A DNA stretch of 59,274 nucleotides, the filler included, from Dugesia japonica (lineage: Eukaryota), in the NCBI GenBank assembly GCA_001938525.1. It is 4 parts of 4 records of this genome, joined end to end, with 100 filler letters (N's around TTAATTAATTAA, not from the genome) between each part and the next. Parts side by side here need not be neighbours in the genome. Positions count along the whole stretch, not along the records: positions 1 to 15,991 come from MQRL01615381.1; 3 more parts are not named here. One strand, 5' to 3'. Positions 7,142 to 57,073 of the stretch are shown one piece after another. Below the pieces are notes generated by a model, which was not told the DNA's origin, ran no database searches, and was given only the letters and a program-made list of their open reading frames with translations. A program made the position numbers and the translations under genes. The stretch's first letter is position 1; every line of letters begins with the position of its first letter.

Positions 7142-10100
7142 CTGAATATATTTATTATTAATAAAAAGTGTATGCTTAGAAATATACAAATATGAAAAGA
7201 GTATTTATTTATTTTAAAATGATTGATGTTTTAAAATTATTATATATAATAAAAACGCTATTCTGTGTATCATAAGATATCGAGTTTTTGCATTGTTTGA
7301 CCAAACTATTCATGATAGCTTGGTAAAGTTAAGAAGTACAATGCAGATTTTTTATGACAAACCAAACGCTATATAAAACTTTCATGAAACATTTGCGTTT
7401 CAAAAATATATTGATAAAATATTTCAGTCAGCCATCAAAACATGAATTATTTGATAAAAAATAGTGAACACAGTCAATAACATCAATTTTTTCCGTTTCT
7501 TTTTGATTTAATTAATTAATATTAATCAAGTCATTTAAATTATTTTCATTGTTTTATCCAGTAGTTTGAGAATTATTGTTATCACATTTAAAATTTTTTT
7601 TCTATCAAGATTTATTGGCTTACAAATTAAATGTAGAAATAAAATGCCATCAAGAAAAAACCAAATTACGAAACAAAATTACGAAACACGGCTACACGTA
7701 ATGAACAACAATTAGCAGAACAAAATCAAGTTGAAACTTCGTTAAGAAGACGAAACGTTAATCAAAGACATTGTCAGAATTATTTTAATAATTAATCTCA
7801 TGATCAGATGCAAGAAGATCAAACACAAAATCTTAAAAACTACATCGTTTTAATGAAACTGCCAAACAAGCATCAAATCGACGTTAAAGTGATTTTAAAA
7901 TGTTATCTATCATTAGGTTTTAAATTTTTTACAAAATACATGTTTGCTTTCTTTCATTTCAAAACGAATATTATCAAACTGCAGACAAAATAACTATGTA
8001 AGTTGAAAGTGTTCAATTAAGGTAAGAATAGCTGGAAATTGCCCTCACTAAGCATTTAAAAATCGAGAAACATTTTAACTTTAAATTAAACTATTTTTGT
8101 TCATATACTTAATTCTGAACAGTAGATGGATACTTGCTCACTGACACAGTACCCTCTCCCCATACCTTTCGACTTCATTAAAAAATTTAACAATTTCAAT
8201 GTGCTAGTATCCCAAGCATTTTGGTTAGAAAATATTTTTGAATCTGATTGGTCGAATCTTTGATCAAGAAGATTGAATTTTGAAATTTAAGTTTATAATT
8301 CTTTTGCACAATTTTTAATTTATGGTTTTGGTACCAATTAACTTAAAATTAAAAACTGAACATGTTTTGTATAGGGTTTGCTGTATAAATATACTTTGTT
8401 CTAGGTGGAAAATGAGTAGTGCACTGGAGCACTTTAACTTGTTAAATAAATTTCTTGGTCAGAACGCATTGTATTGCTTTGTGCTTAGTACGATTCAGTT
8501 CTGAGCATGAAGTCCTGAACATATTTTATGTAGAGTATAGTAACTTGTTAATCATATATTGTTTATAGGTATAAAAAATAATATATAAGTAAATAATAAC
8601 ATTACCATTAACAAATCTTAATAAATAAGTTAACAAGTTGCTTTTTTATTGCATTTTGCATCATGTATACACATTATTGCGTTAATCGAAGTCACAATGA
8701 AGATTTTCATGAGAAAATGGAAAAATACTATGGTATTTTTCATTACGGAAAGAAATAATATATTTGTCCTTCATGTGAAACATTAAGTTCAGACATATAC
8801 GATGAATTTTATAAGACTCATACACACCATTTATCGCCATTTATTAAATATAATAAGAAAGAATTATTACTTAAAGTATTTGATAAAGATAAAATAGTTG
8901 CTCTACTCTATAAGAAATCTAAACTTGGGGTTAATAAAGTAAGCATTAATGATTATGACATTTATGTTGCTCCAGTTGTTAATCCGGTTGTTGATTTGAT
9001 ATAGTTAATAATCCGACTGTTGATCTAGTTGGTTGTTCTTCTTAAGGAAATAGGTGATGAAGAGGTGGTTTCCAAAGATGAGGAAATAAATGCAGATAAA
9101 TTGTATAATATTCAAGCAGGTGGTTTCGTTTATTAAACTGCAATTGAAACCGACTCGTATTGCTGTTAACAAATATTGAAGCTTGATTTTTTGAGATTCA
9201 ATATGAGATAATTCTACCTGTTAATTTGATCCAGAGTTTATTTACGATAATTGATGAACTGAAGTATGTTAAGATCCAGTTTGGAATTCATATGTAATTT
9301 ATTAGGGATGATAAGATTAAGACCTGTAGGTTATCGAATAGTCTGATAAATTTATTTATATTTATTTGTAAGTAGTATAAAAGTGTTTAAAAATTTTCGG
9401 GAGGGGGAGAGTGGTATGTGTGGAAAGAGAATTAATTTTCGGTTTCAAAAAGATTTATTTGAAATTTTTCGGGCATGTGGTTATGACGTCATTATCTTTT
9501 GAAATCTTTATTTGGGTTAAAAATGCTGTACTTTGCATAAAATGATGAATGTGATGAAAGTAATGGTATTTTTGTAAAAATGATGTATTTTTGAGTATTT
9601 TTTGAGTATTTTTGAACAAGGAAGAGTTGTTTTTAATATTTTTTGAACCGGGAAGAGGGGAGTCTTGATATTATTTTTTGGCGGGANNNNNNNNNNTTTT
9701 TTTATTTTAGCGAGAAATTCACTTAAATTTAAATAAATTTAATTATATTTTTTAGCAGAATTTATATTTATGTATGAGATGGGGTAGTCTTGATATTTTT
9801 AAAAGAAATTGAGGCATTATTGATTTTTTAAACACATTTTTCCTTTAGATGGGACAGTCTTGATATTTTGCAAGGGATGGGACAGTTTAAAATTATAGGC
9901 ATGTGATTTTCAGTGTATGCCTGTTGCATCTGAGTTGCATTTGACTTGCATACCTATTGAATTAATTTTTTTAAAAAATCAGTAAAATTCCCAGGTGTTA
10001 CTGTATTGCGATCATATTGCATCCATATTGCATTTATTATTAAAACATTGAGGTAGTATTATTACTTTTTTATACTATAGCAAGATATTAGGCAGTCTAA

Positions 10101-10439
10101 AATTAATATGATAAAATATTCAAAGAGGTGAATCTTCGTGATATTAACAAGATAAAATATATCTTTTAAGAATATTTAAATTAAAACGTTTCTTTATAAG
10201 ATGATAAAAACATAGAACTATTTTCATATAAACTAGGTAATGTTTCTATAAAAAACATATTAGTCACGTAATGTTTCCATAAAAAACATATATGGAGTGA
10301 CGAGTTTCAATAAAAATAACATATATGGGGTGACAATTTTCTATACAAAATGATAAAAACATAATACTTTTCCAATTGCAATTATTACGAGAATAATTGT
10401 TGGATAAATTTAAATTTTGTCTGATAAATGTTTAGAAGA

Positions 10440-10930
10440 AGAAATAAAACAATTAAATGAGAAGATAGTAGTAATGTCTGAACTATGAAGTAATTGGATT
10501 CTTAGTAGCATATTGAATATTAAATTTAAAATTAGTGATCTAAGCAGGTTGTCGGGAAGTAGTTTTATTTCAAACATCAGAAATCCTTGTGAAAACAGCT
10601 ATTCATAATATTCTAAACAAAGACAATATGTGTTTCATTTAAGTATTCTGGTTATACTTAAAGAAAATATAATTAAAAAGAATAATTATCGAGCATTCGA
10701 AATATAGTATATATAGGAGAACTCGTATTTTATGAGGCAGTTAAGTTGGCTAATATTCCGAAGTTATAGAAACATCTTGCAGGACATGTCTTGTCTTGGA
10801 ATATTAATTTAATAGAAGATACCGACGATGAATTTCCTATAAAGCATCCCCATTTGGATATAATTCATAAGAATGAAGGGGGGCAGAAAATAATTATTTT
10901 ATCATTATCAATTTTTATCGTATGATTTCA
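10440..10930 (+). pseudogene. N-terminal fragment of Polinton protein-primed DNA polymerase B
   Basis: SNWILSSILNIKFKISDLSRLSGSSFI...IHNILNKDNMCFI*SIL matches the GSGW...GSYI...INIxNxDxxCFxWSILA pattern; a similar piece lies at ~9170-9430. Confidence 0.7.
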
Positions 10931-11037
10931 AATTTGGTATCATTTAACTCGGAATTAAAAACTGAACATTTTTGTATATGCTTTTCTATATGAATACTTT
11001 TAGTTTCTAAGATAACGGTATGTCAGTACTGGATTAG

Positions 11038-11543
11038 TTAACCTTGAGGTTTCTCAATTAAACTGTCCAAATCTGACATTATATTATAAACTTGATTTTG
11101 ATATAAATTCTTGAGACCAAGAAATATAAATTTTCAACTAGCAAATACATTAAAACATGTAGGATTGTATTTAGTAAGTATCATTGCTGGAAATAATTTG
11201 GGTTCATACATAGACTTAGTTATTCTTGCTAATTAACTGATTGATTCAAATTGACGACAATAGTTAACGATTGTAACTGAATGTTTTTAATGTCATACTG
11301 TAAAGTGCTTCATTTTTATTAGTTTCTTGCATCCCATAATTTTGCAATTTCCTGATTAAAAGAAAATAGTCATATACTTTATACTTTTATCAACGATTTG
11401 TGATGATTTACCGATAGGCAATTTAATTTTACTGGTGATTTCTTGAGATATTTGTTCATTATAATTAATATAATGTGCTTGTTGTAAATAATTCGTTTTA
11501 ACAATATAAAAAAAGTTCTAAATTATTAATTTTTAAAATGCAT
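11038..11543 (-). pseudogene. TATA-binding-protein (TBP)-like gene inside the Polinton relic
   Basis: Two TBP-type repeats: TIFF*SGNCKIMGCK (cf. TALIFSSGKMVCTGAK) and MYEPKLFPAMILTKYNPTCFNVFAS*KFIFLGLK (cf. YEPELFPGLIYRM..PRIVLLIFVSGKVVLTGAK), then a terminal helix QNQVYNIMSDLDSLIEK. Confidence 0.75.
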
Positions 11544-12129
11544 AAATTAAGAAATTATACTGTATATCAAATATTGGGCCCCAGCGGTAGTGGAAATAAA
11601 CTATTTGTATGTAAATTATGGAAATCCAATGTATTTAAATAAATTTCAAAAACGTTTACTGGCATAGAGCGGCAGATGAAGAGCATGGATTGACTAAATT
11701 ATAGATAAATTTGATGATAATTGGAGCAAATGAATGAAACCATGTGATGTAATTGTTGTTGATGATCTATACCTGGAAGCAAACAAGAAAAATGACTTTA
11801 ACAATTTATTCACAAAAATATCAACATATTGTAATGTGACTATGATTTTCATTACTCAAAATCTGTTTCATTAAGGAGTTGGTCATATAACCAGTCATTT
11901 AAATGTACAATACATATTTAAAAGTCCAAGACATAAAACAGTGGTTGTTTTTCTAGCAAGACAGGCGTATCCTAATAATAGAAAATTCTTTATGGATTCA
12001 TTCAAGGATACAATAGTAAATCCACATGGGTATTTTTTTGAATTTGTCCAGGTGACCAATGTCCAGATGAACTTAGAGTTAGATGTGATATTTTCAATCA
12101 AAGTGGAATTACAGTATATAAACAATTGA
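11538..12129 (+). pseudogene. Polinton DNA-packaging ATPase (A32/FtsK-like)
   Basis: Walker A GPSGSG (~11577), Walker B VIVVDD, FITQNLF, FKSPR...FLARQAYP...PHGY; frameshifted. Confidence 0.9.
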
Positions 12130-12457
12130 ACAAATAAAGTAATTATTTGATTATAAAATTTCTGAACTTAAAAAAGTTTTGGTTGATCAGGTAAACGATG
12201 GTTTTATAAACGAGAATAGTTCAAAATTGAAAGGTAAAAAGCTAGCTATAAAAAACAAGAAACAAACAAAGAAGAATTCAATAAAAAAGAAGAGAAAGAA
12301 GAAGAATACAAAGAGGAAGCATATAACAAATAAACAGGTAAGGAAACAGTTAAACAAGTTAAAAAACTATCAAAAAGCTTTGAAAAGAAAATTCCAAATG
12401 TTAATGGAAATGGATCAAGTTATAAACAATCTGTCTGTTTGTATTTAAATAAACATT

Positions 12458-12750
12458 ATGAAATTTAAACAAAGTCTTCCGATTTTGAATATATTACTAA
12501 GGATTCCAAAATAGTCGACAAGTAAATTGTTACAGTTATTTCAAACATTTGTTATAGATGATTTGTTAGATATTATTGTGAATATTGTTCGTAGTAATTT
12601 AATTATAAGTAAATAAATATAGAATAACAACGTCATAAAAGTCATTTGTAAATACAAAAAATAGGAAATTGATGAGAAAAATAATATATAAACAAAAGGG
12701 GGGATTCCTTGCTGTTCTTTTACCAATTGTATTAGCAACATTAAGATAAG
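12458..12750 (+). pseudogene. Small Polinton protein with adenovirus pX-like GGFL motif
   Basis: TKGGFLAVLLPIVLAT at ~12692-12740, preceded by the helical segment IDDLLDIIVNIVRSNL; a Lys-rich ORF (12179-12448) lies upstream. Confidence 0.65.
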
Positions 12751-12759
12751 TAAATAAAC

Positions 12760-13703
12760 ATGCAATCATTGTCACATATTTATCTTAAATCGAACCAATA
12801 TGGAAAGACCCAAAATATCCACCAGGGTTCAAAGAAGTATAAAAATTATAGAAGGCAACACACAATTCAAAAGCGATACAAAAAAGTAGTTATTGAACCA
12901 GCTAGCGTACAGTCTGAACAAGCCAATATTGACAAGATTCCCAACAAGACCGTATAAAACATTTGGCGTTGATGATGTATGGCAATGAAAATGATACCTT
13001 ATTGGAGAATTAATAAAGGATATAAGTATATTTTGACATGTGTTGATGTATTTAGTAGATTTTCAAGAGTTGTACTAATAAAATGTAAATCTGCTAATAA
13101 AGTGGAAGCTGCAATCAAAACGATCTTTTAAGATGGCATCAAGATAATTTGCAAACTGAATTTTATAAGTCAAAAGTCAAAGATCAAGATTAATCATTTC
13201 AAGATCAATCATTAACCTTTATTTACACAATACAAAGCACCGTATGCTGAAAGATTTAACCGAACATACACGTTTTATCGAAAGTAATCCATAGTTATAA
13301 TCATACAAGTCGCAAGACATGTTAATGTATAATCTGATAATTCAATGAAATTATGACTTTGAGACTACAAGCAAAAGTTATCAAGAAAGCAAAATATAAA
13401 ATTGGTAATCATTTTAGAATATCAAAGATATCAGCTTCACTATTCATCAAGAATTTTGATAGTAATTGAAATGATGAAGTGTTTTAAATATCAAAATTCA
13501 ATACAAAACAGAATCCATGCATGCATGTGATTAAAGATCATGAAGAAAATATCATTGTTAGAAAATTCTATGAGCAAGAATTACAGGTTATTCCACAACC
13601 AACTGTATTTAGAATAGAAAAGATTATCAGATCAAAGGAAATTAGGAAATATAAAGATTTTTATATACATTGGTATGTATATGAAAAAGCAAGTTGGATA
13701 TAA
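12760..13703 (+). pseudogene. Polinton retroviral-like integrase with C-terminal chromodomain
   Basis: GYKYILTCVDVFSRF, AERFNRT, YKIGNHFRISK, KFYEQELQV, FRIEKIIRS...HWYVY...SWI. Confidence 0.92.
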
Positions 13704-13740
13704 TCATCTCAAGTAGTAAATTAAACAAAGAAAAGAAAGA

Positions 13741-14450
13741 ATGAGCAAAGTGAATAATTTCTATATATATTTTTGCCGAGATATAGTTGTCCACTTATTC
13801 ATCCTGATAATAATGCTAGTAATTTCATTGTTGAACTTCAAAACCTCATTTATATGGATGGTAAATGGGAATAAGTCTTGATGGATTTCACCTTTGTGTA
13901 CTCAACGTTTCTAATTTATAGCATATCAAATATTGAATATGTAACAGGAAAAGAAGAGTGGAAAGAAATTCTTGTTTCAATTGATAATAAAGAAAAATGA
14001 TTCAGTGCCAATGGTGCTGATGTTATTCAAATATATGAAAATGATTACTTGCACCTTAAATTGTTGCATCATGGTAATGTATTGCAATTTGAGAATCTTG
14101 AAGATGCAAAGCGATTTGAATTTGACAATTTAAATAACGACATTTTAAGACAAAATTCTTTTATTTCGATCCATTAAAAACAATGATTCAATAAAAACCA
14201 TAAAAATAAAGTTATTTCGATATAAACGGTCTTACATAACGAAAATGAAACAATTGAATAAATTATTTATCGAAAATTGTTATTATATATTCAAAACTCT
14301 TCATCTAAAGAAGGATGAGCCATTCAGATTTTTTTTGTTGGATGATGTAAAAGTGTAACATTTGATAGAATCTTAACAAAAACACTATTTGGTTTTTTGC
14401 AACTGGATTTTATGAATCAATCAAAATGTCTTATTACTAGTGTTAATGTT
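13741..14450 (+). pseudogene. Polinton minor capsid (penton) protein
   Basis: N-terminal NFYIY..P...IHPDNNASNFIVELQNLIYMDGKWE matches the Maverick penton start; directly follows the integrase. Confidence 0.75.
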
Positions 14451-15425
14451 CACATTTGAATGAATAGAGCAGCCAATAGAATGGATTTAGAATCTATAAC
14501 AGAAAAACCAAAATTTGTATTGCTCGATCTAAAATTAATGGTTAGAAGAGTTCGAGTTCCAACGACCTCCAAATTGTTATCCGAATTAAGATCTTTTCTG
14601 AAATCTACTTCTAAATCATCTTCAATTTTATCAGCAACAAAATTTTCGATATCGTTCAAATCAACACTATTTGGTATTTAAGAATTTATTGGTATATAAA
14701 AACAGTCCATAACGACTAAATGGAGTGCATGATTATGACAAAGCTCATTTAAAACATCTAATTATTATTTTTCCGTAGTTTTTATTACTGCTGCTGCATC
14801 GTTAGTTGATGCAATAATATAACTTTTTAAAGAAATGCCAAAGTTTGCTAGCTTAGGTTCAAATGAATGTTTAATAGTTTCTTCATTTCCTGTTTAACTA
14901 TTTCTGTTAAATCCAGTACTTCGCATTCAACTTTATTTGATTCCATTCAAACTACGGGAACTGTTACGTTTACATAACCTAAGATGGTGCAATCTGTCCA
15001 TTCATCCACAATAATAGTAAATTTACGATTAGCTTTTTTAAATTTTTCAAATTTATTTCGCAATTTAATACATTTCTCTTTATAAAAGCTGATGATGCAA
15101 TTTGAAATAGTTGTTGAATTTTTTGGCATTTTATTACCTTTTTGTTTCACGCATCCAGTTATTGCATTGGATCTGCTTGGATTCACATCAACTGCTGCGA
15201 TTTTTGACAATATTTCATTAAAAGACTGTTTTTTTACAAATTTCAAAATAGTACTTGCTTCAACTTTTGGCTTTTGCTGCGGAACATTATGTTCTTCATT
15301 AATAGTTGAGTTTGGAAGACTCAACGTATCATTAATATCAAAATTCGAATTCATTACAACATTTTATTGAAAATCAAAAATTATATCCAACAATATTTGT
15401 TAAACAAACAAATTAAAATCCCGTG
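14450..15425 (-). mobile_element. Partial hAT transposase, related to the 2232-4564 element
   Basis: FVKKQSFNEILSKIAAVD parallels FFKKESIEEVISKLTSFD of the first hAT; FTIIVDEWT catalytic-Asp motif; HALHLVV motif followed by an acidic tract. Confidence 0.8.
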
Positions 15426-15445
15426 TTTTCATTGGTGATCATTTT

Positions 15446-15991
15446 TTAAAATCTAAACTTTTTTAAAACACTTACATCTCCCTTTTTAAGAATTTTTTTG
15501 ATCTTCTCTACGTTTCTTTCGAGAATTTTTCCGTTCGTATTTTCCAGGATGCAACGTCTGTTGTGAACCTTTCCTTTGATTTTATAAGGTCCTTCAAAAC
15601 GATCTTGGTTCTTGTTTCTTGTTTCAGCTTTCACTAAGATCTCATCATCGATCTTGAATTGTCTTTTGGTTAATATTTCTTCTTCTTGTTCTTTGTGTAC
15701 TCTTTGAGTATTGGTTTTATACCATTTTTCTCTGCTTATTCTCTTCCCAAATATGATGTCAGCTGGGCTTTTCTAGTTTTCTGTTTTGTAGCATCTAAAG
15801 TAAATTCTATCTCTGGTAATACTTCTGCCAATCTGAAGTTTTCCTTTCTTTAAGCATTGTATTAATCATATCCTTCATAGTTCTAAACTGCCTCTCGATT
15901 TGATCATTTATGTTATGATGATATGAACTAAAAACTTTGAGGGTAATTTCATGTTCAGCTGCAAAATCTTTCATTTATTTTGAATCAAATG
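15446..15991 (-). mobile_element. Ty3/Gypsy integrase 3' end with polypurine tract and start of the 3' LTR
   Basis: SSYHHN, SPADIIFG, RFEGPYKI...ILERNVEKIK; purine-rich AAAAAGGGAGA followed by TGTAAG on the minus strand (~15471-15487). Confidence 0.8.
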
Positions 15992-25820: not shown

Positions 25821-28260
25821 GATTTAAATAAATACCTGTTCCAGATGTTGTATTATTAGTTGGAAAAAAATGATCTGGTAATAATTCTTTTTTCGTATCT
25901 TTTATCTCTTTCCATATCTTTTTTAAATTATAATTGCACTTCTTGAATTACTTACAGCAATTGCAACTCCACCAGCAACTCCAGCTGCAGAAGCTCATCC
26001 AGAAAGAATTGCTAAAATTGGAATAACCATACCTTCTTCAATGAATTTGGATTTTCATTTAAATGATTTTAAATTGCTTCTTTAGCTTTCTTTCAGATCC
26101 AATAAATTTTACCATTTATAACTATTGATTTACATTTTGTTGAATTTATTAAATTTAATAATTCTTGTTCTGTAATTGACTGAGACATTTTCTTTTAAAA
26201 ATTAATTAAGGCATTTCAATCGGTAATTATTTTCAAATTAATTATTTTTTTTAACATGAATTTTACACATATTTTTTCAATCTCTTTTAAATTATCTGAA
26301 ATTTTATACCATGAAAATGTACTTGTTAATATTTTTTGGATATTTATTTGCTAAATTATGAAACTTGATTAATTAATAATTATAACTAATACTATAATTA
26401 ATATGACTATTATAAAATTAAGATAAATCATTATTATTTTTTATTTGATTTTTTAATAATTACATACTACCTAATTCATTATATATTAATTAACTTATTT
26501 TTTTAATTAAATATATTTTCTAAATCTTTTTTTTTGTTAATTTTTTTGATACCCATAATATATCTTGTTTTTTTAATATCTATTTGATCAGTTGGATAAA
26601 AACTTAATAATTTTATAAATATAAATTTAAAATTTATAACATTACTAATTGAAACATCATCATCACCATATTTTTCTTGAAATTCTAATTTCAAAGAAAC
26701 GTTAAAGTTTCTTTAATTTTTCTATATTACATCTGGATCTTTAGACTCTCAGAACTCTGCTCGAGAATCGCAAAGCTTTGCTTGAGAATCACAGAACTCT
26801 GTTTGAGAAATATTATTATTCCATTCTAATATTTTACTTTTTAAACTTTGTTCATTTTTTGGAAGTGCACTTTTGTAAAATAATTTTTTTCTTTTGGAGA
26901 ATTTAAATTTTTAAGTTTTATATTAAACCAATCTCTTATTATTAAATCACATTCTTCACATAAAATTTCCAACATATAATTAATTAAATCACTCAAAACA
27001 TTATTATTATTTCTTTTCAAATATTTTATAAAATCTTTTTTTAGAAACCATATTATTAAATAAAAATTTTAACTCACGAGCCTCCTCCTGAAATGACTCA
27101 TGTGAGTCGTATTTTATTCTAAATTTTTGTCATAAATTTTTTTATCAAATCGTTTTTCAAAATTTTTTATCATTTAATTAAAATAAAGAAAAAGTCTCGA
27201 TCAAAACAAAATGTATTTTAATAGAAATTCAAATTTTCAACAATTGTCTTCTTCACGAATATTTTTTTCAAAATGTTTTCATCACATATCACAAATTATA
27301 AGTCACGAATCAAATAAGTCTTCCATTAAAATATCAGCTTCTCTATCTAAATAAAAATAATTATATATTGTTTTCCAATGTAATATTACTTAATAATCAT
27401 ATTCTAATTTATTGTAAAATATATTACTAAATAAATAATGATATACATCATTTTTATGTGTTTTAATTAATTTGAAAAATATATAATTACTATTATTTCT
27501 TATTGAATTTTTATCTAAATGAAAATATATTTGTGATAACATTATATATAACATTACGATTATTGTCTTCATCTTGTAAATTAAATTCCTTTTATTTTTA
27601 CTAAGTTGATCAGAAGGAATAAGATTATTAGTTTTATTACTTAGAGTTATATATACATATATACTTTGCAATTTTTTGTCTATAAATTTTTTTATTAAAA
27701 ACCATTTAACAACTTGTAGTGTATAATATACACCCATAATTACCTATTAATTGTGGAATTAAATTTTGCTTTTCAATAATTAATATGACATCTTCTTTAG
27801 ATGAACTATTTTCAAATCCTTCTCTCATTAATTGTAACGCAAATTGATTTATTGTTGTTGAATAAATAATTAAATTATTATAATATATAAATTCTGTTAA
27901 TAACATTTTTAATAATAATTTATTTGTACCACATATTAATGATCCTATAATCAATAAACTAAGATTGGATGGAAAATATTTTATTTTTAAATACTTTTTA
28001 ATTCTTGTTCCAAATTAGTGGTGCTGAGCTTTTAGACATTTCTATTAATTTAAAATATAGTTTTTGAAGTTAATTCTCACAAAATCTTCTTAAAATCTTT
28101 TCATTATTTAAATCTGTAATTCCATAAGTTTTTGGTTTTGTATTATAAACTTTTGTTACAATAAATATTTCATTAATCCATTTTACAGTAAAACATTTTT
28201 CAAATTTATATTTGTATTTAAATATTCTAACTCAATCACCTATTAAAAAAGTCTCTAATT
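25821..28260 (-). mobile_element. Maverick/Polinton relic 2 (integrase C-terminus, packaging ATPase, pX-like protein)
   Basis: IGD*VRIFKYKYKFEK...WINEIF...TYGITDLNNEKI (integrase end); IIGSLICGTNKLL...LSQIYFHLDKNSIRNNSNYIFFK (ATPase); VIPILAILSG*ASAAGVAGGVAIAV (pX-like). Confidence 0.8.
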
Positions 28261-30199: not shown

Positions 30200-31588
30200 T
30201 TATTCCTGATCAAATTCTTTCTGTTCCTTCTTCACTTCTCGCTGAAGACCACAAAATATCGATTGATTATTATTATTATTATTATTATTATTGGGTTCTT
30301 CTTCTTTACAAATGTTTTCCTGAGAAAAATAATTATTATAATTCTCCGTTTTCCTCGGTCGTCCGCGTTTTCGTTTGACAGATTCAGTTAAATTATCGAT
30401 TATTCCCCCAGTTGATTTATCATTTTCTCCTCCTCCTGCTCCTCCTGCTGCTGCTTCTGCCTCTACTTCACCATCAAACAATCCATTGAACAAATCTCTT
30501 GCGTCTGGTAATTTCCTCTTGCGTCCACGCTTCATAGGTTCGTGTTTAACCTGCTCCAAAGTTCCTTTCTCGTGTTTCTCAATGTGACACTTCATGTGCA
30601 TCACAGTGTTTGCAGTGAATCCACACTCGTCATACGGACAAACAATCTTACCGGTGGCTCCTCTCGATTTCCTCGTATTGATCTCGTCTTTATGGTACTG
30701 TTGTACGTGAGTTTGTAGTTCTTCTGTACTGCTGAATGTTACTTCACAATACCGACAAACCTCTTTCCGATTAACCTTTCTGCCGTGATTCCTCGTGATG
30801 TGATGATTCAATTTGTTCATCTGTTCGAATCCCGGTTTATTACAAATCGGACAACTGAATTTACTCATGTGTTCTTTCAAGTGTTGTCGGATTTCTTTCA
30901 CATCGGCAATCAACAAACCACAACTATCGCACTTGAAATTCTTCTCCAATTCCAAATTGCAAACTTTTCTATGGGTTTTCACATGGTAAACATTGGTAAA
31001 TCTCTCGTTACAACCCAAACAAATGATTTCCAATGAATTATTATTCACTTGTTCAACATGTTCCTGTAATTCGTGTTCACGGGTTCTCAAATGCGACAAA
31101 TAGATGTCGTGGGTTTTGAATTTCTTTTTACAAAGCAAGCAATCGAATTTCTTTTCGTCGTTATGCCGGCTTTCGTGGGTGTTTCTATTGGTTTTCTGAG
31201 TGAAAGTTTTATGGCAATATTGGCATTTGTACGGTTTAATTTTCGTATGAGCTCCACAATGGTGTTCAAATGTGCCACCGTTATTCGTCATATAATCACA
31301 ATTCGGAAATTTACAATGGTATCGGTATTGAGACGGATCTCTCGGTGGTTTATTCGGGTCAACGTGATCTCTACGTGCATGTAAAAACAAATCACTTAAC
31401 TCGAGAAAAATTCTCGGACATTGTCGACAAACGAAAATCTTTTCTTTATGTAATTCTTTATAATGTTTTGTTAATGCACTGGCATTGGAAAACGTTTTCT
31501 GACAATTTGGGCAAGGATATTGCGTATTCAGATTTTGAGTTTCTTCAACTAAAATATCTCCAGTTTTATCCATTTTCACAAAATACAT
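30200..31588 (-). CDS. C2H2 zinc-finger transcription factor (about 10 fingers) with C-terminal AT-hook(s)
   Basis: Intact 462-aa ORF; nine C2H2 fingers and one C2HC, HTKIKPYKC linker, KRGRPRK AT-hook, KRGRKRK, poly-Asn tract. Confidence 0.95.
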   Translation of the reverse strand: MYFVKMDKTGDILVEETQNLNTQYPCPNCQKTFSNASALTKHYKELHKEKIFVCRQCPRIFLELSDLFLHARRDHVDPNKPPRDPSQYRYHCKFPNCDYMTNNGGTFEHHCGAHTKIKPYKCQYCHKTFTQKTNRNTHESRHNDEKKFDCLLCKKKFKTHDIYLSHLRTREHELQEHVEQVNNNSLEIICLGCNERFTNVYHVKTHRKVCNLELEKNFKCDSCGLLIADVKEIRQHLKEHMSKFSCPICNKPGFEQMNKLNHHITRNHGRKVNRKEVCRYCEVTFSSTEELQTHVQQYHKDEINTRKSRGATGKIVCPYDECGFTANTVMHMKCHIEKHEKGTLEQVKHEPMKRGRKRKLPDARDLFNGLFDGEVEAEAAAGGAGGGENDKSTGGIIDNLTESVKRKRGRPRKTENYNNYFSQENICKEEEPNNNNNNNNNQSIFCGLQREVKKEQKEFDQE

Positions 31589-33199
31589 TTTTTCGTCTAA
31601 CTAATTAATTTCATTAAATTCACTTATTTATAAATTGCATATTATTAATTATTACTATAACTGTTTTATTTATATATTGCTTAGGATTTTTTTGAATATC
31701 TTCTAATATTGAGGTAACTTTCTATAAACAAAAATTAAACAACTTACATTTTAAATTCAACCAACTTCTTCATTTACTAAATTTTCTAATACAATTTCCC
31801 CTGCATTTTCAATAACATTAAAATACTGATCATTAATCTATTTAGTTAAATTTATTATTAATCCAAAATGATTAATTTAATAATATATGATTACCTGCAC
31901 AATTTGATTCAAAAAAGGTCTAAAATCTTCATTTAACTAAAAAAATTCAATTATAGGGTTTATTAAAAATTTCAATATAAAAAAAACATTTGATGCAGTA
32001 AGATTGCTTTCATTTTTTATTTCAATATCCTAATTTAACAACAGATTAAAATTAATTATGAATAATTGGGAAAAACAAACTTCAAAATTGTTACTATCGT
32101 GAATTTCTTGAAACATAGTTAGTGTGAAAATCAAATTGAAATATTAAAACAAATATTTGATTTTTTAGGTTTTTAATTTTGATTAGGAAGTTAAATGAAA
32201 TTTTAGAATTGAATATTGAAACAAAAGTTATTATATTAATCAAATTCAAAAGCAATTTAATTTTGTTTGACTTGAACAATTAAAAGAAATATTTTATAAA
32301 TGATTTTTTCAGAACTGGTTATATTTTTTGAAATATTTCGTTTTGATTTTGAACACATAATTTGAAAACCAAAAATTTTTTAAAATTTGAATATTTAAAA
32401 AAACCATTTAATTTTTTTGTATTAAATCATAAATATTGTTGAAAATAACTTCAAATAAATAACATTGATAGTTAAAACAACTTAAATCCAAATAAAAATA
32501 TGCCTATCAAAAATATTTTTTGTAACAACTAAAAAATAGTAATTCAAAATTATATAAAAAATATTTAAAAACATTCTATAAAATCAAAATAAAATATTAT
32601 TCCACTAATGTGAAGAAATGCAGGGAAATGAAATCGTACAATAATTAAACAAGGTAAATAGAAATTTAAAAATACAGAAACCAAGAATGATTTTATATAA
32701 TTGCTAAACAGATAAAACAATAAAATAATACAAATTTAAAACTCAATGCAATTTAAAAAATTCCAAATAAAATCAGGATAAATAATAAAAGTAAGAAGAA
32801 TGAAAAAATAATAATAAAAAAATGAAATATTAATGAATTTTCAGAAGTTAATGTTTTCCAAAACAGCGATTCACAAACTAATAGTCTCGGAATAGTTTAA
32901 AAAGAAATGCAACTTTTAAGCATAACAAATATATATACATTTTAATAAATTTTCATCACATAACATTTATCATACTGTCGTGCTCCGAGGATTTGATGTT
33001 TTTTTTTCTTCTATTGTAACTCTTGGTACTTCTTTCTTGTCATTAATTTTATCTCATTATCTTCTAGGAACAGATACCCGAGAGCCGGCAGAAATTTGCC
33101 AACACTCCTCGTGTTGCTCCATCCACCCCGAGTCCATGCGGGACTATGTGGTATCCCGTCTTTTAGAAAGTCTTAGTTGTTATGGCTCTTATTAAGTTG

Positions 33200-48671: not shown

Positions 48672-50461
48672 TTTTATCCTTTCTTTTATTTTATTTAGAT
48701 CGTATATAAACAAGAAAATAGTAGCTAATGTTGGAGCCCATAAGGAACCCATTGCTACTCCATCAACCTATCTTTACAATTCACCATGAAAAAGAAATTG
48801 AACATTCTATGCTGCGTAAGTTAAAAGATCAAGAAACGCTATAATATAGCTGCTATATAATCTAAAGAGGATTTATTAGGATTAAACTCACTCCATATTT
48901 CACAACACAAATCTTTAGTCTCTNNNNNNNNNNNNNNNNNNNNNNNNNNNNNNNNNNNNNNNNNNNNNNNNNNAATAAATAAATAAACATATAGATTTCC
49001 AGCAGTTGAGACTGTTGTTAATATAATTTCATATGATTTGCAAGCCTAATAATCTTTGGATATACCATTTTCCTCGAATTCGGCATTGTTTTACTCAATC
49101 AGACAATTATATAATTTGTTTTATAGACTACTCCGACATGTTTTGTTTTCTTACAAATCTTTTCGATCGGTTGCCCTTGAAACAAGTGGCGTTATTTTTG
49201 ATTCTTTTTATCCTTTCTTTTATTTTATTTAGATCGTATATAAACAAGAAAATAGAAGCTAATGTTGGAGCCAATAAGGAACCCATTGCTACTCCATTAA
49301 CCTATCTTTACAATTCACCATGAAAAAGAAATTGAACATTATATGCTGCGTAAGTTAAAAGATCAAGAAACGCTATAATATATCTGCTATATAATCTAAA
49401 GAGGATTTATTAGGATTAAACTCACTCCATATTTCACAACACAAATCTTTAGTCTCTTTTAATGGAACATTAACAAATAAACTTGTTACATCAAATGAGA
49501 CCATGAAACAATCCATACTAGCCAATGGATACAGAGAAATGAAATATGAAAATTCATAACTATCTTTGAACTTAAATTTAGATGTAAATTTAAGTTCAAA
49601 GATTTAATAAGATCATCTAACAATTTGGTAACTTTATCATNNNNNNNNNNNNNNNNNNNNNNNNNNNNNNNNNNNNNNNNNNNNNNNNNNNNNNNATTTT
49701 CGCAGGTTGTAAACATCTAGGACATCATTTCTGAAAATATCTTTAGTAATGTTATCAATTTTTTAACAATTTAATAAGCAAAGAAATCAAATATTCCTCA
49801 TCATTAAATAATGGAAATTTAGCATTTTTTTCGCAAATGACCAGTTTTCAAAAATTGAGAACTATTTAAAATAGATAACAATTTATCAATATAATCCTTA
49901 TGTTTTACAATTGTAATTATTGCGAGAATAATTGTTGGACGTAACCATTGATCGTTTTATAGAATTAATTAAAATAAAAGCTTCGATCAAAAATTATTTT
50001 TTGTTTTAGATAATAATTACAATTTTCGACTTTGTCTTNNNNNNNNNNNNNNNNNNNNNNNNNNNNNNNNCTTATGATTCAGAATAACAAATCCATTAAC
50101 TTTATCAAATTTACAAACCTTAATATTTTTTGAAGATAAGTTTTTCAATATTAAATAGTCTTTATTATCTTGTTTATTATTTTTTGAAAAATATTTCAGT
50201 GTTTTTAAAAAACATGTGTTTTAAATAATTTAAACATGAACCATTTTTAATATTAGAATTTTCATTCTTTTTTGAAAAAAAATTGAAAATTGATTCAATT
50301 TTAGACTTAAATCTAACATGGCTTATTTTTTTCTTCATACCCTGTCTTGGTTCATAACGCAAAATTTTAATTTTATTATCATTTAATTTAATATCACTCA
50401 TATTTAAAACAGTATATTTTATATTAAATTTATATACGCCAAATAATTTTCTAAGTTTCAT
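48672..50461 (-). mobile_element. Penelope-like element, N-terminal region and reverse transcriptase remnant
   Basis: TVLNMSDIKL N-terminal motif; MVSFDVTSLFVNVPLKET (RT motif A); GVAMGSLLAPTLA (motif B). Confidence 0.85.
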
Positions 50462-51920: not shown

Positions 51921-54900
51921 AGTAGTTAGATAGTGGAGCACGGGAACACCCCCCCCAGGAGAAAAAAATTTTTTCGGTCGATTTTTTTGGTAGAATTTTT
52001 TTTCCTCAATTATTTTTTTAAAAATTTTATTTTTAAGAATTCAAATTTTGTGCGTAGGCGGATGACGTCATTGTTTTTTAAATAACGCGCAATTCATTAT
52101 TTTTTTTAATTAAGTAAAAATAATTACTTTTGTATAAATTAGTTGATTTTTATGATTTCTTGTCTAAATTAACCAAAATTTTCTAATTTTAATTAGTGAA
52201 ACAATCATATCTGGACAATTTTAACATTAGAAGTCTCGAGCAATATTAATAACAACAATAATAATAATGAGAAAATCAAAATACATCAAAACACAAAATG
52301 TATTGTTTATAATACACAAATAATCACAGTCATTACATTAGTTACAATCATTTCATAGACATTTCAATCTTGATCTTTATTGAAAATTGNATCTTAATAG
52401 TACAAATTAATAACTACAAATAACAAAATAATTTACCTGTACATGCGCTTCTTTTCATCCAAGTCTTATTTATTACAATATAGAAAAATGCCCGTATGGT
52501 ATGCTTATGTTTTTGTCAGTCCACACTCTTTTGTCATAATTATTGGTTAATGGGACTTTTGGTCCTAAGAAACTGTACAACTGGTGGTTTTTCGTTCCTA
52601 TTCTAAATTGTTTTACTTAGACCGATTGACTGTTATTGTAACAATCAAGGTATGACTAATGATTTATGTTCGTACCTTTTAATGTTATGCCTTTAACCTT
52701 CATCGATTCCTTCTCGCTGAGTAGGCTATAACACTTCGGTCTCAGAAAAACCCATTCTTTATATTTCCTTCCTTTATTNNNNNNNNNNNNNNNNNNNNNN
52801 NNNNNNNNNNNNNNNNNNNNNNNNNNNNNNNNNNNNNNNNNNNNNNNNNNNNNNNNNNNNNNNNNNNNNNNNNNNNNNNNNNNNNNNNNNNNNNNNNNNN
52901 NNNNNNNNNNNNNNNNNNNNNNNNNNNNNNNNNNNNNNNNNNNNNNNNNNNNNNNNNNNNNNNNNNNNNNNNNNNNNNNNNNNNNNNNNNNNNNACATTC
53001 GTAATTTGCTTAAATCAAGAACTGTCTGTCCTATGTAACTTGGCCTTTTGAGACACACAATATCTTTATTTTAGTTGTACCACTATTAAATCTTGATCGA
53101 TCTTAATGGTTCTCTTAAACCCTGATTTTGAGGTATAGGTTACTAACGTCTTTGCTGAATTACATATTCTCAAGTTTATTCGTTTCTTCAGATTTTCAAC
53201 TGATTTACGATACAAGCTGTTGTTCATGAGCTTATAGTAATTTTTATCCAATTTATTCACACTTTCAGCCCTTAATTTGGTGTTTTCGTCGATGTATTGC
53301 TTGAAAATATGATCTTGTGAAAATCTAACTGCCCTGTGAACATTTGTAACTTGCACACCTAATTTCAAGTACATTTGTAGTAATCTCCAGTGTACTATAT
53401 AATTGAACTTTGAATAATGAGTCAACATTTATTTCTTGACCTTGCTTCCTGCACATTGATGTTCGGCTGCAATGGGTAAGTCATTGAGATAATTGTGAAG
53501 TTCGTTGGGAATCTCAATGTCAACTTCTAGAGTGTATCCATATTTTAACGACTCGAGATCTGCATATTTACATTCTTCTAAAACTACTTCTAATCCACAA
53601 TATACCCATTCTAAATTTTTGTATGGTAACTTTTTGCTCAAAGCTCATCCGTACAGGTTATTTATATCGATGTATAACAACTCTGTTTTCATCTGACATA
53701 ATATGGTGTTTGCTGACAAAGGTGAGGCCACCTCTAATTCCACGTTCGAAAAATGTGTACATGTCGTTGTCAGTCAAATGCCTGATGGGTTCGTTTAAAG
53801 TCATCAGATTCGATGCCCAGCTCATACCTGGAATGCCAAAGAAATTTAAGGGTTCCAGACGGTTGTGAGCTAATGACCTTGCTCGAAATTGCTGAAAAAA
53901 GTCAGCTAAGAGAAAGACATCCAACTTCATGTACACCAGCATATAGTCCAGTAAGTTTTTGCATTTCAAGATTTTACACATATCCACCNNNNNNNNNNNN
54001 NNNNNNNNNNNNNNNNNNNNNNNNNNNNNNNNNNNNNNCTTTTTCCTGTTCTTCATCACTATTTCCATCCCATTTTGGCGGCATTTTCTTTGTATTCACC
54101 AGTACTTGTAAACTGGCAGCGTGATTGTATGGGAAAATCCCCTTTGTCCTTTTAATTCTGCTGTCGATAAATTCTTTTGNNNNNNNNNNNNNNNNNNNNN
54201 NNNNNNNNNNNNNNNNNNNNNNNNNNNAATTGATAAATTGATATGAATCAATAAATCGAATGGTAGGTGATTTTGTTTGATGTGCAATAAGACACAAGAA
54301 TTTTTCGCTTGTAGTTGGAAATTGACAGAGTCCATGCTTTAGGATATGGTGCATGTCATATTTTCTTAAATTATGGAATACAACATGTAATTGCATATTT
54401 ATTCTTTTGCTTAGATTGCAACTGTTGCATGCTTCACACATATATTCACCTGTAAAATGATCGTGGTCTGTAACAGGATTTACTAATAATTTCTCACATA
54501 AATGACATGTTTTGGTAGCAGCAAAGAAAATTTCTTGATCCAGAGTTATATTTATCCTCTTTTTTCCATTATTCATATAATATATTTACACAGTATTCTT
54601 GCTGATTTTCTCAATCTCTTTCAAAAACTTAAAAACACAGTCGTTTCCGATAAATTCTTGATATTTTATTTCATTATAGTAATTGTTAACTAGCAAAGGT
54701 CCGGCTGTAATAGGTAAATGTTTTTAATAATAATCCTCATATGGTGATAATACTGATTCAAAATATATGATGAATGGAGGACTTATAGTTTTTTAAAAGT
54801 CCGTAAATTCTAAGTTAGGATCGATCGGCATGGTATATAACGCGGTTCCTGTCTGGATTTTACTACAAAGAGGCTCATGTTTTTCAAAAGCTGCATTATC

Positions 54901-54960
54901 TCAGACAATTAGGGCACCATATTGACCGTATTTGGAAACCGTTCTTCCCTTTTCTAAAGT
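51921..54960 (-). mobile_element. Maverick/Polinton relic 3, with terminus and pPolB
   Basis: AGTAGT terminal motif at 51921 followed by a GC-rich TIR-like stretch, about 550 bp beyond the polymerase stop. Confidence 0.85.
52470..54960 (-). pseudogene. Protein-primed family B DNA polymerase (Polinton type)
   Basis: DHDHFTG..CNSCNL, VFHNLRKYD, FIDSYQF, KGIFPY, DVFLLADFF, IRGG, DINNLYG, KLMNNSLY, DLSKLRM, LRPKCYS, PYGH; stops, frameshifts and N gaps. Confidence 0.95.
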
Positions 54961-57073
54961 AGCATCATTGAATAATGTGTAATGTAATTCAATCGATAAA
55001 TATATATAATTAATAACTGTTAATTTAGTTTTTTATTGTTTTGACATCATTCAATAATTTAACTTGTTTTGTTGTGATAAGTCTTCAATTAACAAAGATT
55101 ATCTAAGATATTTGATTCATAAAAAAATGAGTTTCATTTGTTTTAACGAGAATTTCATCTAATATCGACTTCTGGATTTCATCTCAAGCTCATTTTTCTT
55201 TGTCACATATAACTTACTTTGATTTATTTGAACATAACTAACGTTTGTCATTGATATCATGGTGGGATTCATCTGAATATAATTTCGGTTTTTCATCAAC
55301 TGAATAATTTGATTTATCTGATTAATACGTTCAATAATAGTGTTAGGTATTTTAGAAATGTTCACCGTAGAATTTGAAGCATTTTATTTTCATTTATAAA
55401 ATTATTTAGTTTATTCAAGCTAAATAAATCAAAATATTAACTTCAATTTTTAAAATCCATTTTTTAAAAAACATTCTAAATAAAAATTNNNNNNNNNNNN
55501 NNNNNNNNNNNNNNNNNNNNNNNNNNNNNNNNNNNNNNNNNNNNNNNNNNNNNNNNNNNNNNNNNNNNNNNNNNTCAATCAAGTATGAATGATTATGTTG
55601 AGTAACAAATAAAGTTCTTTTATTACGTTTGTGTGTTATTTATTATTTGCAGTAATCAATTAATTCTTGGAAAATCCAAAACAAATTGCATGTTGTGTAT
55701 GCTATATTTTCTTATGATGTTTGCGCAAGAGTACAATTAGCACAATAAATTTCAAATAAATGTTCAAATTTGTAGTTTTTAGAGATATTTTCTTTACTCT
55801 ATTTTACGCGCTTATTCTACTCGCGCACCCTATATTTATGAATTTTTTTATATTTACTTGGTAACGACGTAAAAATGTAATTTGATTTTTAAAATTATTT
55901 CTACGAATTTTTTGCCAAAGAAGTTTTATATTAATTATCAGAATCCATCAGTTTTCATACAATTAAATCGTACGAAGTGGGATAGAGGATTTCAAACAAT
56001 AATTTCTTGTTGTATTGTTCTTGGAATATTGATTGTACTTATTCCGCTTGTCCAAATCTATATGAATTTATACAGACAAAGATTTAAATTAAGTAGGTCT
56101 CATCTAAAAATAGTAATTTCAATAAAGTTTATAAAACCTTAGTTTTTACTTTCAAAGATAATCCCAATCAAATAGATATTCACAAAAATGTATGTTCTTT
56201 CTGCAAGACTGACTTTTACTTTATTATCTGAGGCAAGCCAGTTTCGAATTTTTGAGTTGGAAACAACAGATATTTTCTCGAAAGAAATGGTTATATTTAA
56301 TTGTTTAAACATTTCGTTTCACTAAACAAAACCAAATAAGACAACGAAATTAAAAAATGTTATATCTACTCAATCAACCGCGAAATCTAAGTCTCGTGAA
56401 AAATATGACAGTTCGAAGAATATTTCCAAATAACAAGAATTACACAAAAATGAATAATATTTATAAAAAACTACGTAATATTCCTTTCTTAAAAATCCAT
56501 TTGTCCAATATCTTACAACAACTATTTCTATTTTTCATTTAAAAGTTGCTGTAAAATTTTGAAAAATATGGCGGTTAATGGGAAAATTACTGCAGTATTT
56601 GATATTTCTTCAAAAAAATAAATGACGGTTAGGATGGACGGAGATTAAGAGACCAATTACTATAACTGGTTTTGAACATTTTTATCCCTTTTGAAATAGT
56701 ATTGATTTTTTGCATTTTTGAGTCCAAAAGTTGTAAAAAACTTTTTAAGGAACACCAATTACAAATAAGTTATTCTTTTGTCTTATTACATGTGTATCTT
56801 AAAACGTCAATTATATCAATAATCTTTTTCAGTGGTGCACAACCCTTTTTATAGACAGGTTGCATCATCAGTCTACATGCAAATTTTTCTGGCTGAAGGT
56901 TGTGCCTCCTGATTTATATAATTAAACTTTAATATAAACATTTGAGATCTCTAAAAATACTAATTATATCATAATACTATTAATCTATTATCGATTTCAA
57001 TATGAAAGTTGAATTTAAAAAGACAATTCAAAACTTTTCTGAAAAATAAAATGGTAATTTAATACGATAATAA

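Follow-up and report, generated by a model that had tools for sequence, protein, structure and literature searches.

A stretch of the Dugesia japonica genome assembly, 59,274 nucleotides long with filler and referred to below as the window, raises the question of whether a Maverick/Polinton element carries its own gene for a TATA-binding protein (TBP), and what such a protein would do for the element. The original prediction read both halves of a TBP fold from the minus strand and proposed that this Polinton lineage encoded a divergent TBP to drive its promoters or redirect host transcription. Both peptides quoted there were found in one minus-strand frame. Read with X at the stops, the stretch matched PF00352 (TBP) at an E value of 3.3e-6 with 27.3 bits, above the gathering cut-off of 22.9, and in a search of PDB sequences TBPs made up the top 35 of its 39 matches (best E 7.8e-6). 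A profile of the family described below, which we call mini-TBP, scored 112 bits on the window copy and no more than 3.1 bits when the six-frame window was reversed. The copy was colinear with an intact homolog, P0002, at 67% identity across 146 columns, which agrees with the prediction that it is intronless. Based on PF00352, the identity to P0002 and the per-frame match, we placed the gene at 11038..11481 on the minus strand; it has about 148 codons rather than the 165 or so estimated earlier, the homologs beginning at codon 11481-11479.

The window gene is a real member of the TBP family, but it is dead, a pseudogene or fossil copy. In-frame stops lie at 11358-11356 and 11136-11134, frame-by-frame comparison revealed frameshifts near 11304 and near 11231, and codon 11481-11479 does not read as a start codon here; with two stops, two frameshifts and no start codon, it cannot make protein. 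The gene had been described as readable in one frame with stops. The stops were confirmed, but the 24 residues between the two frameshifts lie in another frame, where they are 24/24 identical to P0002, so the single frame was out of register there. The copy belongs to a short subgroup without the second helix of the N-terminal repeat. No TATA or initiator was seen within 130 nt upstream of it, and no second TBP copy was seen elsewhere in the window. One contig of sequencing run X2, which may share its source with the assembly, spans the TBP/ATPase junction (11481-11766) with 0 differences. Two RNA runs gave few reads over the gene, mostly less than 95% identical and equal on both strands. Just past the TBP stop, a 65-nt segment (10933-10996) has a second copy 2.6 kb upstream (8327-8391) with 83% identity.

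The copy sits inside a decayed Maverick. Beyond its 5' end, on the plus strand, lies a decayed A32-like packaging ATPase (11538..12134), identified by tblastn and profile matches to cluster C1 (best iE 2.9e-40), a member of which matches Pfam Pox_A32. It is followed on the same strand by a decayed small conserved Maverick gene of cluster C11 (12458..12746, with ATAAAC upstream at 12422 and 12449) and a decayed retroviral-type integrase (12784..13718, with ATAAAC upstream at 12754), which matched rve at an E value of 0.0023 and whose intact relatives match rve and chromo. Next comes a decayed gene of cluster C6 (13761..14258, plus strand) without a database match, which we take to be a putative minor capsid gene from its position and a motif. 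A fragment of a double jelly-roll major capsid gene (cluster C8; 14376..14675, plus strand) was located by protein and profile searches from related loci. The capsid profile gave 0 matches to PDB sequences, and the identity was settled by fold, a model of an intact C8 relative matching double jelly-roll capsids with an E value of 8.7e-15. The sequence that cuts off the capsid gene (14500-15990, minus strand) had no Pfam match; from its motifs it presumably resembles hAT transposase and Gypsy integrase. No cysteine protease was found in this partial element.

On the other side, a weak N-terminal remnant of a protein-primed polymerase (10288..10930, plus strand) faces the TBP gene tail-to-tail. 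Its tblastn E values were 6.4e-4 and 0.031 to two protein-primed B polymerases (pPolBs); these matches come from a 2-kb search, and the end point was read from the translation. The remainder of the gene is missing, and the remnant has no Pfam match and no polymerase domain. The predicted position between a pPolB fragment and the ATPase therefore held for the ATPase, while the pPolB side amounts to this weak N-terminal match. A candidate left end of the element lies at 9371..10496, where AGTAGT at 9371 precedes a very high-copy stretch that would be the terminal repeat; from one bin to the next, summed contig depth climbs from 434 to 221,277 (about 500-fold). An (AGT)2 motif marks the ends of Mavericks/Polintons in the available text of PMC8097293. 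No inverted partner of the end at 9371 was found within the window. In two assembled runs of the same organism, an AT-rich eukaryote, 20,845 and 18,154 contigs mapped to 8000-14800 at 85% identity or more, the TBP stretch included, so related copies are many, although depth is not copy number. The window copy is an ordinary fossil of a high-copy family, and the interest lies in the family.

Further remains were seen elsewhere in the window. A nearly whole decayed protein-primed polymerase lies at 52470-55050 (minus strand), a decayed Maverick ATPase fragment at 56288-56497 (plus strand) and a decayed Maverick integrase fragment at 28058-28258 (minus strand). A 37-nt segment occurs at 10368-10404 and 49903-49939, 92% alike between the two places; hundreds of RNA reads contain it between unrelated flanks, and it is probably a short high-copy repeat. 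An open 466-codon frame at 30200-31600 (minus strand) encodes many C2H2 zinc fingers and is probably a host gene exon.

Two of five candidate homologs were intact, P0002 (151 aa) and P0003 (149 aa). Of 523 candidate proteins, 402 matched a profile built from these two sequences at E<=0.001; 107 of the 120 matches listed (of the 402) were aligned after 13 short or long ones had been dropped, and these 107 homologs are 144-170 aa long. Of 368 pattern matches in a metagenome scan, 181 were confirmed as relatives, and the best 80 of the 181 were taken as loci. A hallmark ORF (ATPase, integrase, capsid, protease or polymerase) was present in 37 of these 80 and in 19 of the 23 loci of at least 4 kb. 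Another 32 shared accessory genes with the hallmark loci, and the other 11 were at most 3,008 bp long and uninformative on linkage. Protein-primed polymerase B occurred in 8/80 and cysteine protease in 7/80, and Pfam searches of neighbour ORFs returned Pox_A32, rve with chromo, Peptidase_C5, DNA_pol_B_2 and PLA2-like matches. These results show that the mini-TBP gene belongs to the Maverick element.

The linkage to Polinton genes was thus upheld by the hallmark ORFs, but a fixed head-to-head arrangement with the ATPase was not. That arrangement is true in the window; among 26 related loci the two genes were co-directional in 24 and directly head-to-head in none. The ATGCAT palindrome to which the prediction drew attention is present at 11538-11543, but the ATPase starts at its ATG, and ATGCAT accounts for 8 of the 1,445 six-base palindromes in the window (24/kb). 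We rejected the palindrome and head-to-head layout as a feature; the 2 divergent loci of the 26 have genes in between.

The mini-TBP gene is under purifying selection. Among 20 pairs, 3 of them saturated, dN/dS was below 1 in 17 of the 17 computable pairs, with a median of 0.19. TBP distances co-varied with those of the ATPase (Mantel rho 0.66, n=22), the integrase (rho 0.65, n=13) and the capsid (rho 0.48, n=11), in part as an effect of subgroup structure. The loci showing selection and co-variation span 27-47% GC. With intact homologs numerous, a TBP fold, Maverick genes around them and purifying selection acting on them, the results bear out the claim that a Polinton lineage encoded its own divergent TBP; the homologs are linked to element genes and are not merely unlinked host retrocopies. 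The observation with which we started is confirmed in part, and its interpretation is supported.

Several neighbours of the gene were recorded. SSB-like clusters C19, C3, C14 and C17 lie near the TBP gene (L064:1039-1503, L004:1788-2135, L047:1660-2256 and L055:943-1713). In the Atlas, C19 matched clusters from giant viruses and linear plasmids, a minority of whose members carry Pox_I3, DUF2738 and DUF5871; an Atlas search for C14 gave no useful match, and hhalign links were weak (C3-C17 63%, C3-C14 24%). One 357-aa protein, P0122, appears by eye to fuse mini-TBP to a C14-like domain; it comes from a single contig and could be a read-through. Among 8,000 scored candidates, 6 longer matches were found, one of them a fusion, which is weak evidence on the rarity of fused forms. 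tRNA genes were seen in 4 of 20 scanned element loci (L061:3449-3523, L062:10601-10684, L067:5518-5589 and L088:8855-8938), the last interrupting the polymerase region. A ubiquitin-conjugating enzyme (L013:225-719), a dual-specificity phosphatase (L012:4008-4316), a RING finger (L048:1710-2168), a leucine-rich repeat protein (L030:1918-3327) and a KilA-N gene (L081:606-1739) are cargo or flanking genes. Neither the window protein nor the alignments of capsid and ATPase, nor a second TBP type described below, found relatives in IMG/VR; the family alignment found one giant-virus TBP.

Structure modelling of P0002 gave a confident model (pLDDT 95.9) in which the mini-TBP product is a two-lobed TBP saddle. 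Compared with cellular TBP, the model scored Z 13.1 with an rmsd of 2.7 A over 148 aligned residues, residues 1-150 lying on yeast 66-240, and every listed Foldseek match at E<=0.001 was a TBP. In the N-terminal repeat of the model the first helix is short and the second absent. The corresponding spacer measures 17-22 residues in 102/107 homologs, against 32 in the TBP of the giant-virus contig L001. Helix loss is not family-wide, because 22 of 65 parsed loci form a longer subgroup with a spacer of 25-31 residues that keeps a helix-length segment; L082:969-1469 is one of its members. N-lobe helix 2 of TBP has regulator-binding residues, according to the available part of PMC10491584.

To describe the DNA-binding face, we compared the 107 homologs at the contact positions of cellular TBP, whose roles are given in the available texts of PMC12529657 and PMC1636458. 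Equivalents of F116, F190, F207 and E188 are present in 107/107, P191 is kept in 97/107, and E186 is E in 103 and D in 4, so that the acidic Glu-Pro-Glu stirrup that binds TFIIB (E186/E188) is kept. Three of the four intercalating phenylalanines of cellular TBP are retained; no Phe aligned to F99 in either of two alignments, whose register differs there and is uncertain. In the N-lobe, V71 is changed to N in 104 homologs, V122 to R in 106 and T124 to M in 107; the other changed contacts are N159 to S (105), V161 to T (98), V203 to C (107) and L205 to N (107), and T215 is changed to L as well. The altered-specificity mutant TBPm3 is defined by three positions, V203 and L205 among them (residue roles: PMC12529657, PMC1636458, in part). 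The aligned sequences point to a DNA face that is polar, strongly conserved and systematically unlike that of cellular TBP.

The upstream regions of the element genes fall into two promoter classes, shown as a sequence pattern. ATAAAC, a word we had initially spotted by eye in the data used for the test, was the top de novo 6-mer in the 130 nt upstream of core genes, and it occurred in 106 of 126 dereplicated core-gene upstream regions, against 11 expected from dinucleotide shuffles. It preceded 23/23 ATPase, 10/10 major capsid and 11/15 integrase genes and was almost never antisense, and 72 of 144 sites lay 30-50 nt before the ATG. The family word, (T/C)ATAAAC(A/G), precedes ATPase, integrase, protease and capsid genes, and its seventh base is C in 122/144 sites. 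At a GC content of at least 0.40 the word was found in 20/20 regions, hence there is no GC effect, and overlap with stop codons explains 31 of 130 sites and is not the main cause.

The TBP gene itself belongs to the other class. Its start could be placed, with enough flank, in 55 of the 80 loci. ATAAAC was seen upstream in 4/41, against 3.5 expected, whereas a canonical host-type TATA was present in 19/41, against 2.9 expected, and missing in 22/41. A TCATT word, presumably initiator-like, was also seen there, and CCAAT enrichment was not supported (12/41 vs 9.2 expected). Canonical TATA preceded 6 of 8 genes of the SSB-like neighbour C14. In the window, ATAAAC occurs 9 times sense and 0 times antisense within the 3.2 kb of 11482-14700 (P 1e-4). 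The box before the window ATPase is not the family word but the TATA-like octamer TATAAAAA (11505..11512, plus strand), 33 nt before the ATPase ATG and at the distance where relatives have ATAAAC. Confinement of the word to core genes fits the proposal that the Polinton TBP drives the element's own promoters; the companion proposal, redirection of host transcription, gained no direct support.

We then compared elements found without reference to the TBP gene. These controls were 5 loci found by ATPase alone, few, partial, mostly GC-rich (0.51-0.59) and from two bins. L082, found in this way, has mini-TBP and carries ATAAAC at 4/4 genes. In L083-L085 no TBP was seen by a profile search, and ATAAAC occurs at 0/12 core genes; the search that cleared these bins, G002 and G003, likewise failed to pick up the second TBP type in G004. 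L089 has ATAAAC at 0/3 genes. L086 was withdrawn as a TBP-free control, its contig carrying another TBP-like gene. The element represented by L086 and L088 has this different TBP type, and ATAAAC is absent from all its core genes. L088 (G004:C86, 22.9 kb) is Maverick-like, with ATPase, integrase, both capsids, protease and polymerase. Its second-type TBP-like gene (L088:2476-3042, minus strand; 189 aa, Pfam TBP E 1.9e-11) has no acidic stirrup and lies directly upstream of a TFIIB-like gene (L088:1778-2533, minus strand; 252 aa, Pfam TFIIB E 4e-6 plus a zinc ribbon). No convincing candidate for a promoter word of the second type was found in this one element. The link between the mini-TBP gene and ATAAAC is a correlation within one lineage.

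Taken together, the sequence patterns suggest that mini-TBP, a protein of about 150 residues in intact Mavericks, probably acts as the element's late transcription factor. Host TFIID and Pol II would make mini-TBP early, via the host-type TATA box, and mini-TBP would then bind the ATAAAC box before the ATPase, integrase, protease and capsid genes. Its near-canonical C-terminal lobe would read the 5' half of the box, and its altered N-terminal lobe, with one Phe fewer and Asn/Arg/Met contacts, would read the 3' half with its C. In cellular TBP the N-lobe contacts the 3' half-site, where C is disfavoured (PMC1636458, available part), so an altered N-lobe fits an altered 3' half; positions 7-8 are where the second Phe pair enters (PMC1935006, available part). 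The retained Glu-Pro-Glu stirrup would recruit host TFIIB and so Pol II, and loss of N-lobe helix 2 in the short subgroup would free mini-TBP from docking by TAF1 and Mot1. A protein such as P0002 would be expected to bind and bend TATAAACA and to favour the C-containing box among TATAAACA, CATAAACA and TATAAAAG, with cellular TBP as comparison, and transcription starts would fall about 25-30 nt downstream of the ATAAAC word. In its widest form, to which we give an even chance, Mavericks run an early-to-late cascade on host Pol II with a minimal TBP, a private (T/C)ATAAAC box, host TFIIB and a shed regulatory surface; part of that proposal is that Mavericks acquired basal initiation factors on more than one occasion, a second lineage having a different TBP and TFIIB.

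It is unlikely, in our judgement, that mini-TBP instead mainly antagonises host transcription, as a TFIIB sink or by occupying TATA boxes, while host TBP or a paralogue reads ATAAAC. A retained TFIIB stirrup and the loss of the host-regulator surface in the short subgroup would suit such an antagonist, and a crystal structure of cellular TBP exists with a TATA variant that has C(-25) (PDB 1qn3, by its title). However, the DNA face is conserved yet unlike that of cellular TBP, and a conserved, systematically altered face fits a distinct DNA target. The word also marks core genes and avoids the TBP gene, and it is absent from control elements where the mini-TBP gene was not seen.

Similarly improbable is the reading that ATAAAC serves other machinery, from a co-infecting large DNA virus or another element gene, with the TBP-fold protein working elsewhere, for instance on the terminal repeats in replication. 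The TBP gene often adjoins viral-SSB-like genes, the two being apparently fused in P0122, and plasmid Rep initiators have a fold similar to that of TBP (Z 6.7). The use of helper-virus late promoters by virophages also speaks for this reading. A replication role would not need a TFIIB stirrup, though, and the word is TATA-like and lies 30-50 nt before the ATG in half of its sites. Furthermore, no TFIIB-like or other initiation factor was found in 97 Pfam scans of mini-TBP neighbour ORFs, nor by phmmer. That the gene is a host TBP retrocopy or recent host-gene capture that decayed in or beside a Maverick is already contradicted and most improbable: it is intronless and broken in the window, and the family's separation from cellular TBPs has no strong support (82/72, in a tree of 44 rows with 6 outgroup rows, none animal), but the window copy shares 67-68% identity with intact homologs of about 150 aa against 17-27% with cellular TBPs, the best PDB profile scores of the family are archaeal and microsporidian rather than animal, human TBP not being best, and the gene shows purifying selection and co-variation with element genes across its GC range.

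A role for mini-TBP as late transcription factor would matter for how these elements are studied. Mavericks/Polintons are abundant in animal genomes, and no particles have been observed, according to the available text of PMC8097293. A small element-encoded TBP and a promoter word make the switching on of capsid genes in Mavericks testable with one protein and an 8-base site. If the role is real, the herpesvirus approach of pairing a viral TBP with a late box of its own extends to small integrating viruses, and mini-TBP would be a natural minimal TBP for asking which surfaces Pol II initiation needs. If the full cascade holds, Mavericks would be autonomous nuclear viruses needing no helper virus, and mini-TBP a natural altered-specificity TBP.

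Among known systems, the relatives resemble Mavericks/Polintons and adintoviruses in carrying pPolB, rve integrase, A32 ATPase, C5 protease, double jelly-roll capsid and a PLA2-like gene. TBP is not listed among the eight Maverick core genes in the available text of PMC8097293, where the word TATA is also absent. Figure legends of Starrett 2021 place 'TBP' on adintovirus-like elements, including Fig. 5 (PMC8502044; 10.1101/697771). Section 3.4 of that paper, as available, does not discuss the gene, and the figure label may or may not denote the same family; one supplementary file, possibly incomplete, had 0 matches. Neither 'TBP' nor 'TATA' occurs in the available texts of PMC11161782, 10.64898/2026.10.13.758929 and 10.64898/2026.06.19.733378. 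The Starrett label is the one published mention of the family that we found; figures, Repbase, preprint supplements and subscription papers could name the gene.

Like cellular and archaeal TBP (PF00352; 1ytb, 1cdw, 1mp9), mini-TBP has the two-lobed saddle and keeps three intercalating Phe, P191, N69 and the E186/E188 stirrup. Unlike them, it is about 25 residues shorter, mobile-element encoded and, at 17-27% identity, distant; it has no Phe at F99, lacks N-lobe helix 2 in the short subgroup and has a polar DNA face, the equivalents of V71, V122, L205, N159 and V161 being changed. Mini-TBP is a TBP-family protein that departs from two canonical features, four phenylalanines and two helices per repeat.

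Mini-TBP shares a virus-encoded TBP fold with Nucleocytoviricota TBPs, seen in BFVD matches and in L001, and with poxvirus VITF-3. Nucleocytoviricota TBP homologs serve a viral RNA polymerase. The L001 giant-virus contig carries a full-length 182-aa TBP beside family B polymerase, ribonucleotide reductase and heliorhodopsin genes. VITF-3, a TBP/TFIIB pair, likewise serves a viral RNA polymerase (PMC12917281, available part), whereas neither an RNA polymerase nor a TFIIB was seen in mini-TBP elements.

A likely functional parallel is with KSHV ORF24 and EBV BcRF1. ORF24 engages a non-canonical late box through a polar TBP face; it is large, binds Pol II directly, lacks the acidic residues for TFIIB and acts together with five cofactors of viral origin (PMC12529657, available part). 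Mini-TBP shares the polar TBP-fold face and the division into host-type early and non-canonical late boxes, shown in the herpesviruses in the text available and here suggested by promoter sequence. Unlike ORF24, it is a bare domain of about 150 aa with its stirrup kept, other residues changed and no cofactor seen. With no extra domain and the stirrup retained, mini-TBP is not a member of the ORF24/BcRF1 family, but by analogy it may work like them.
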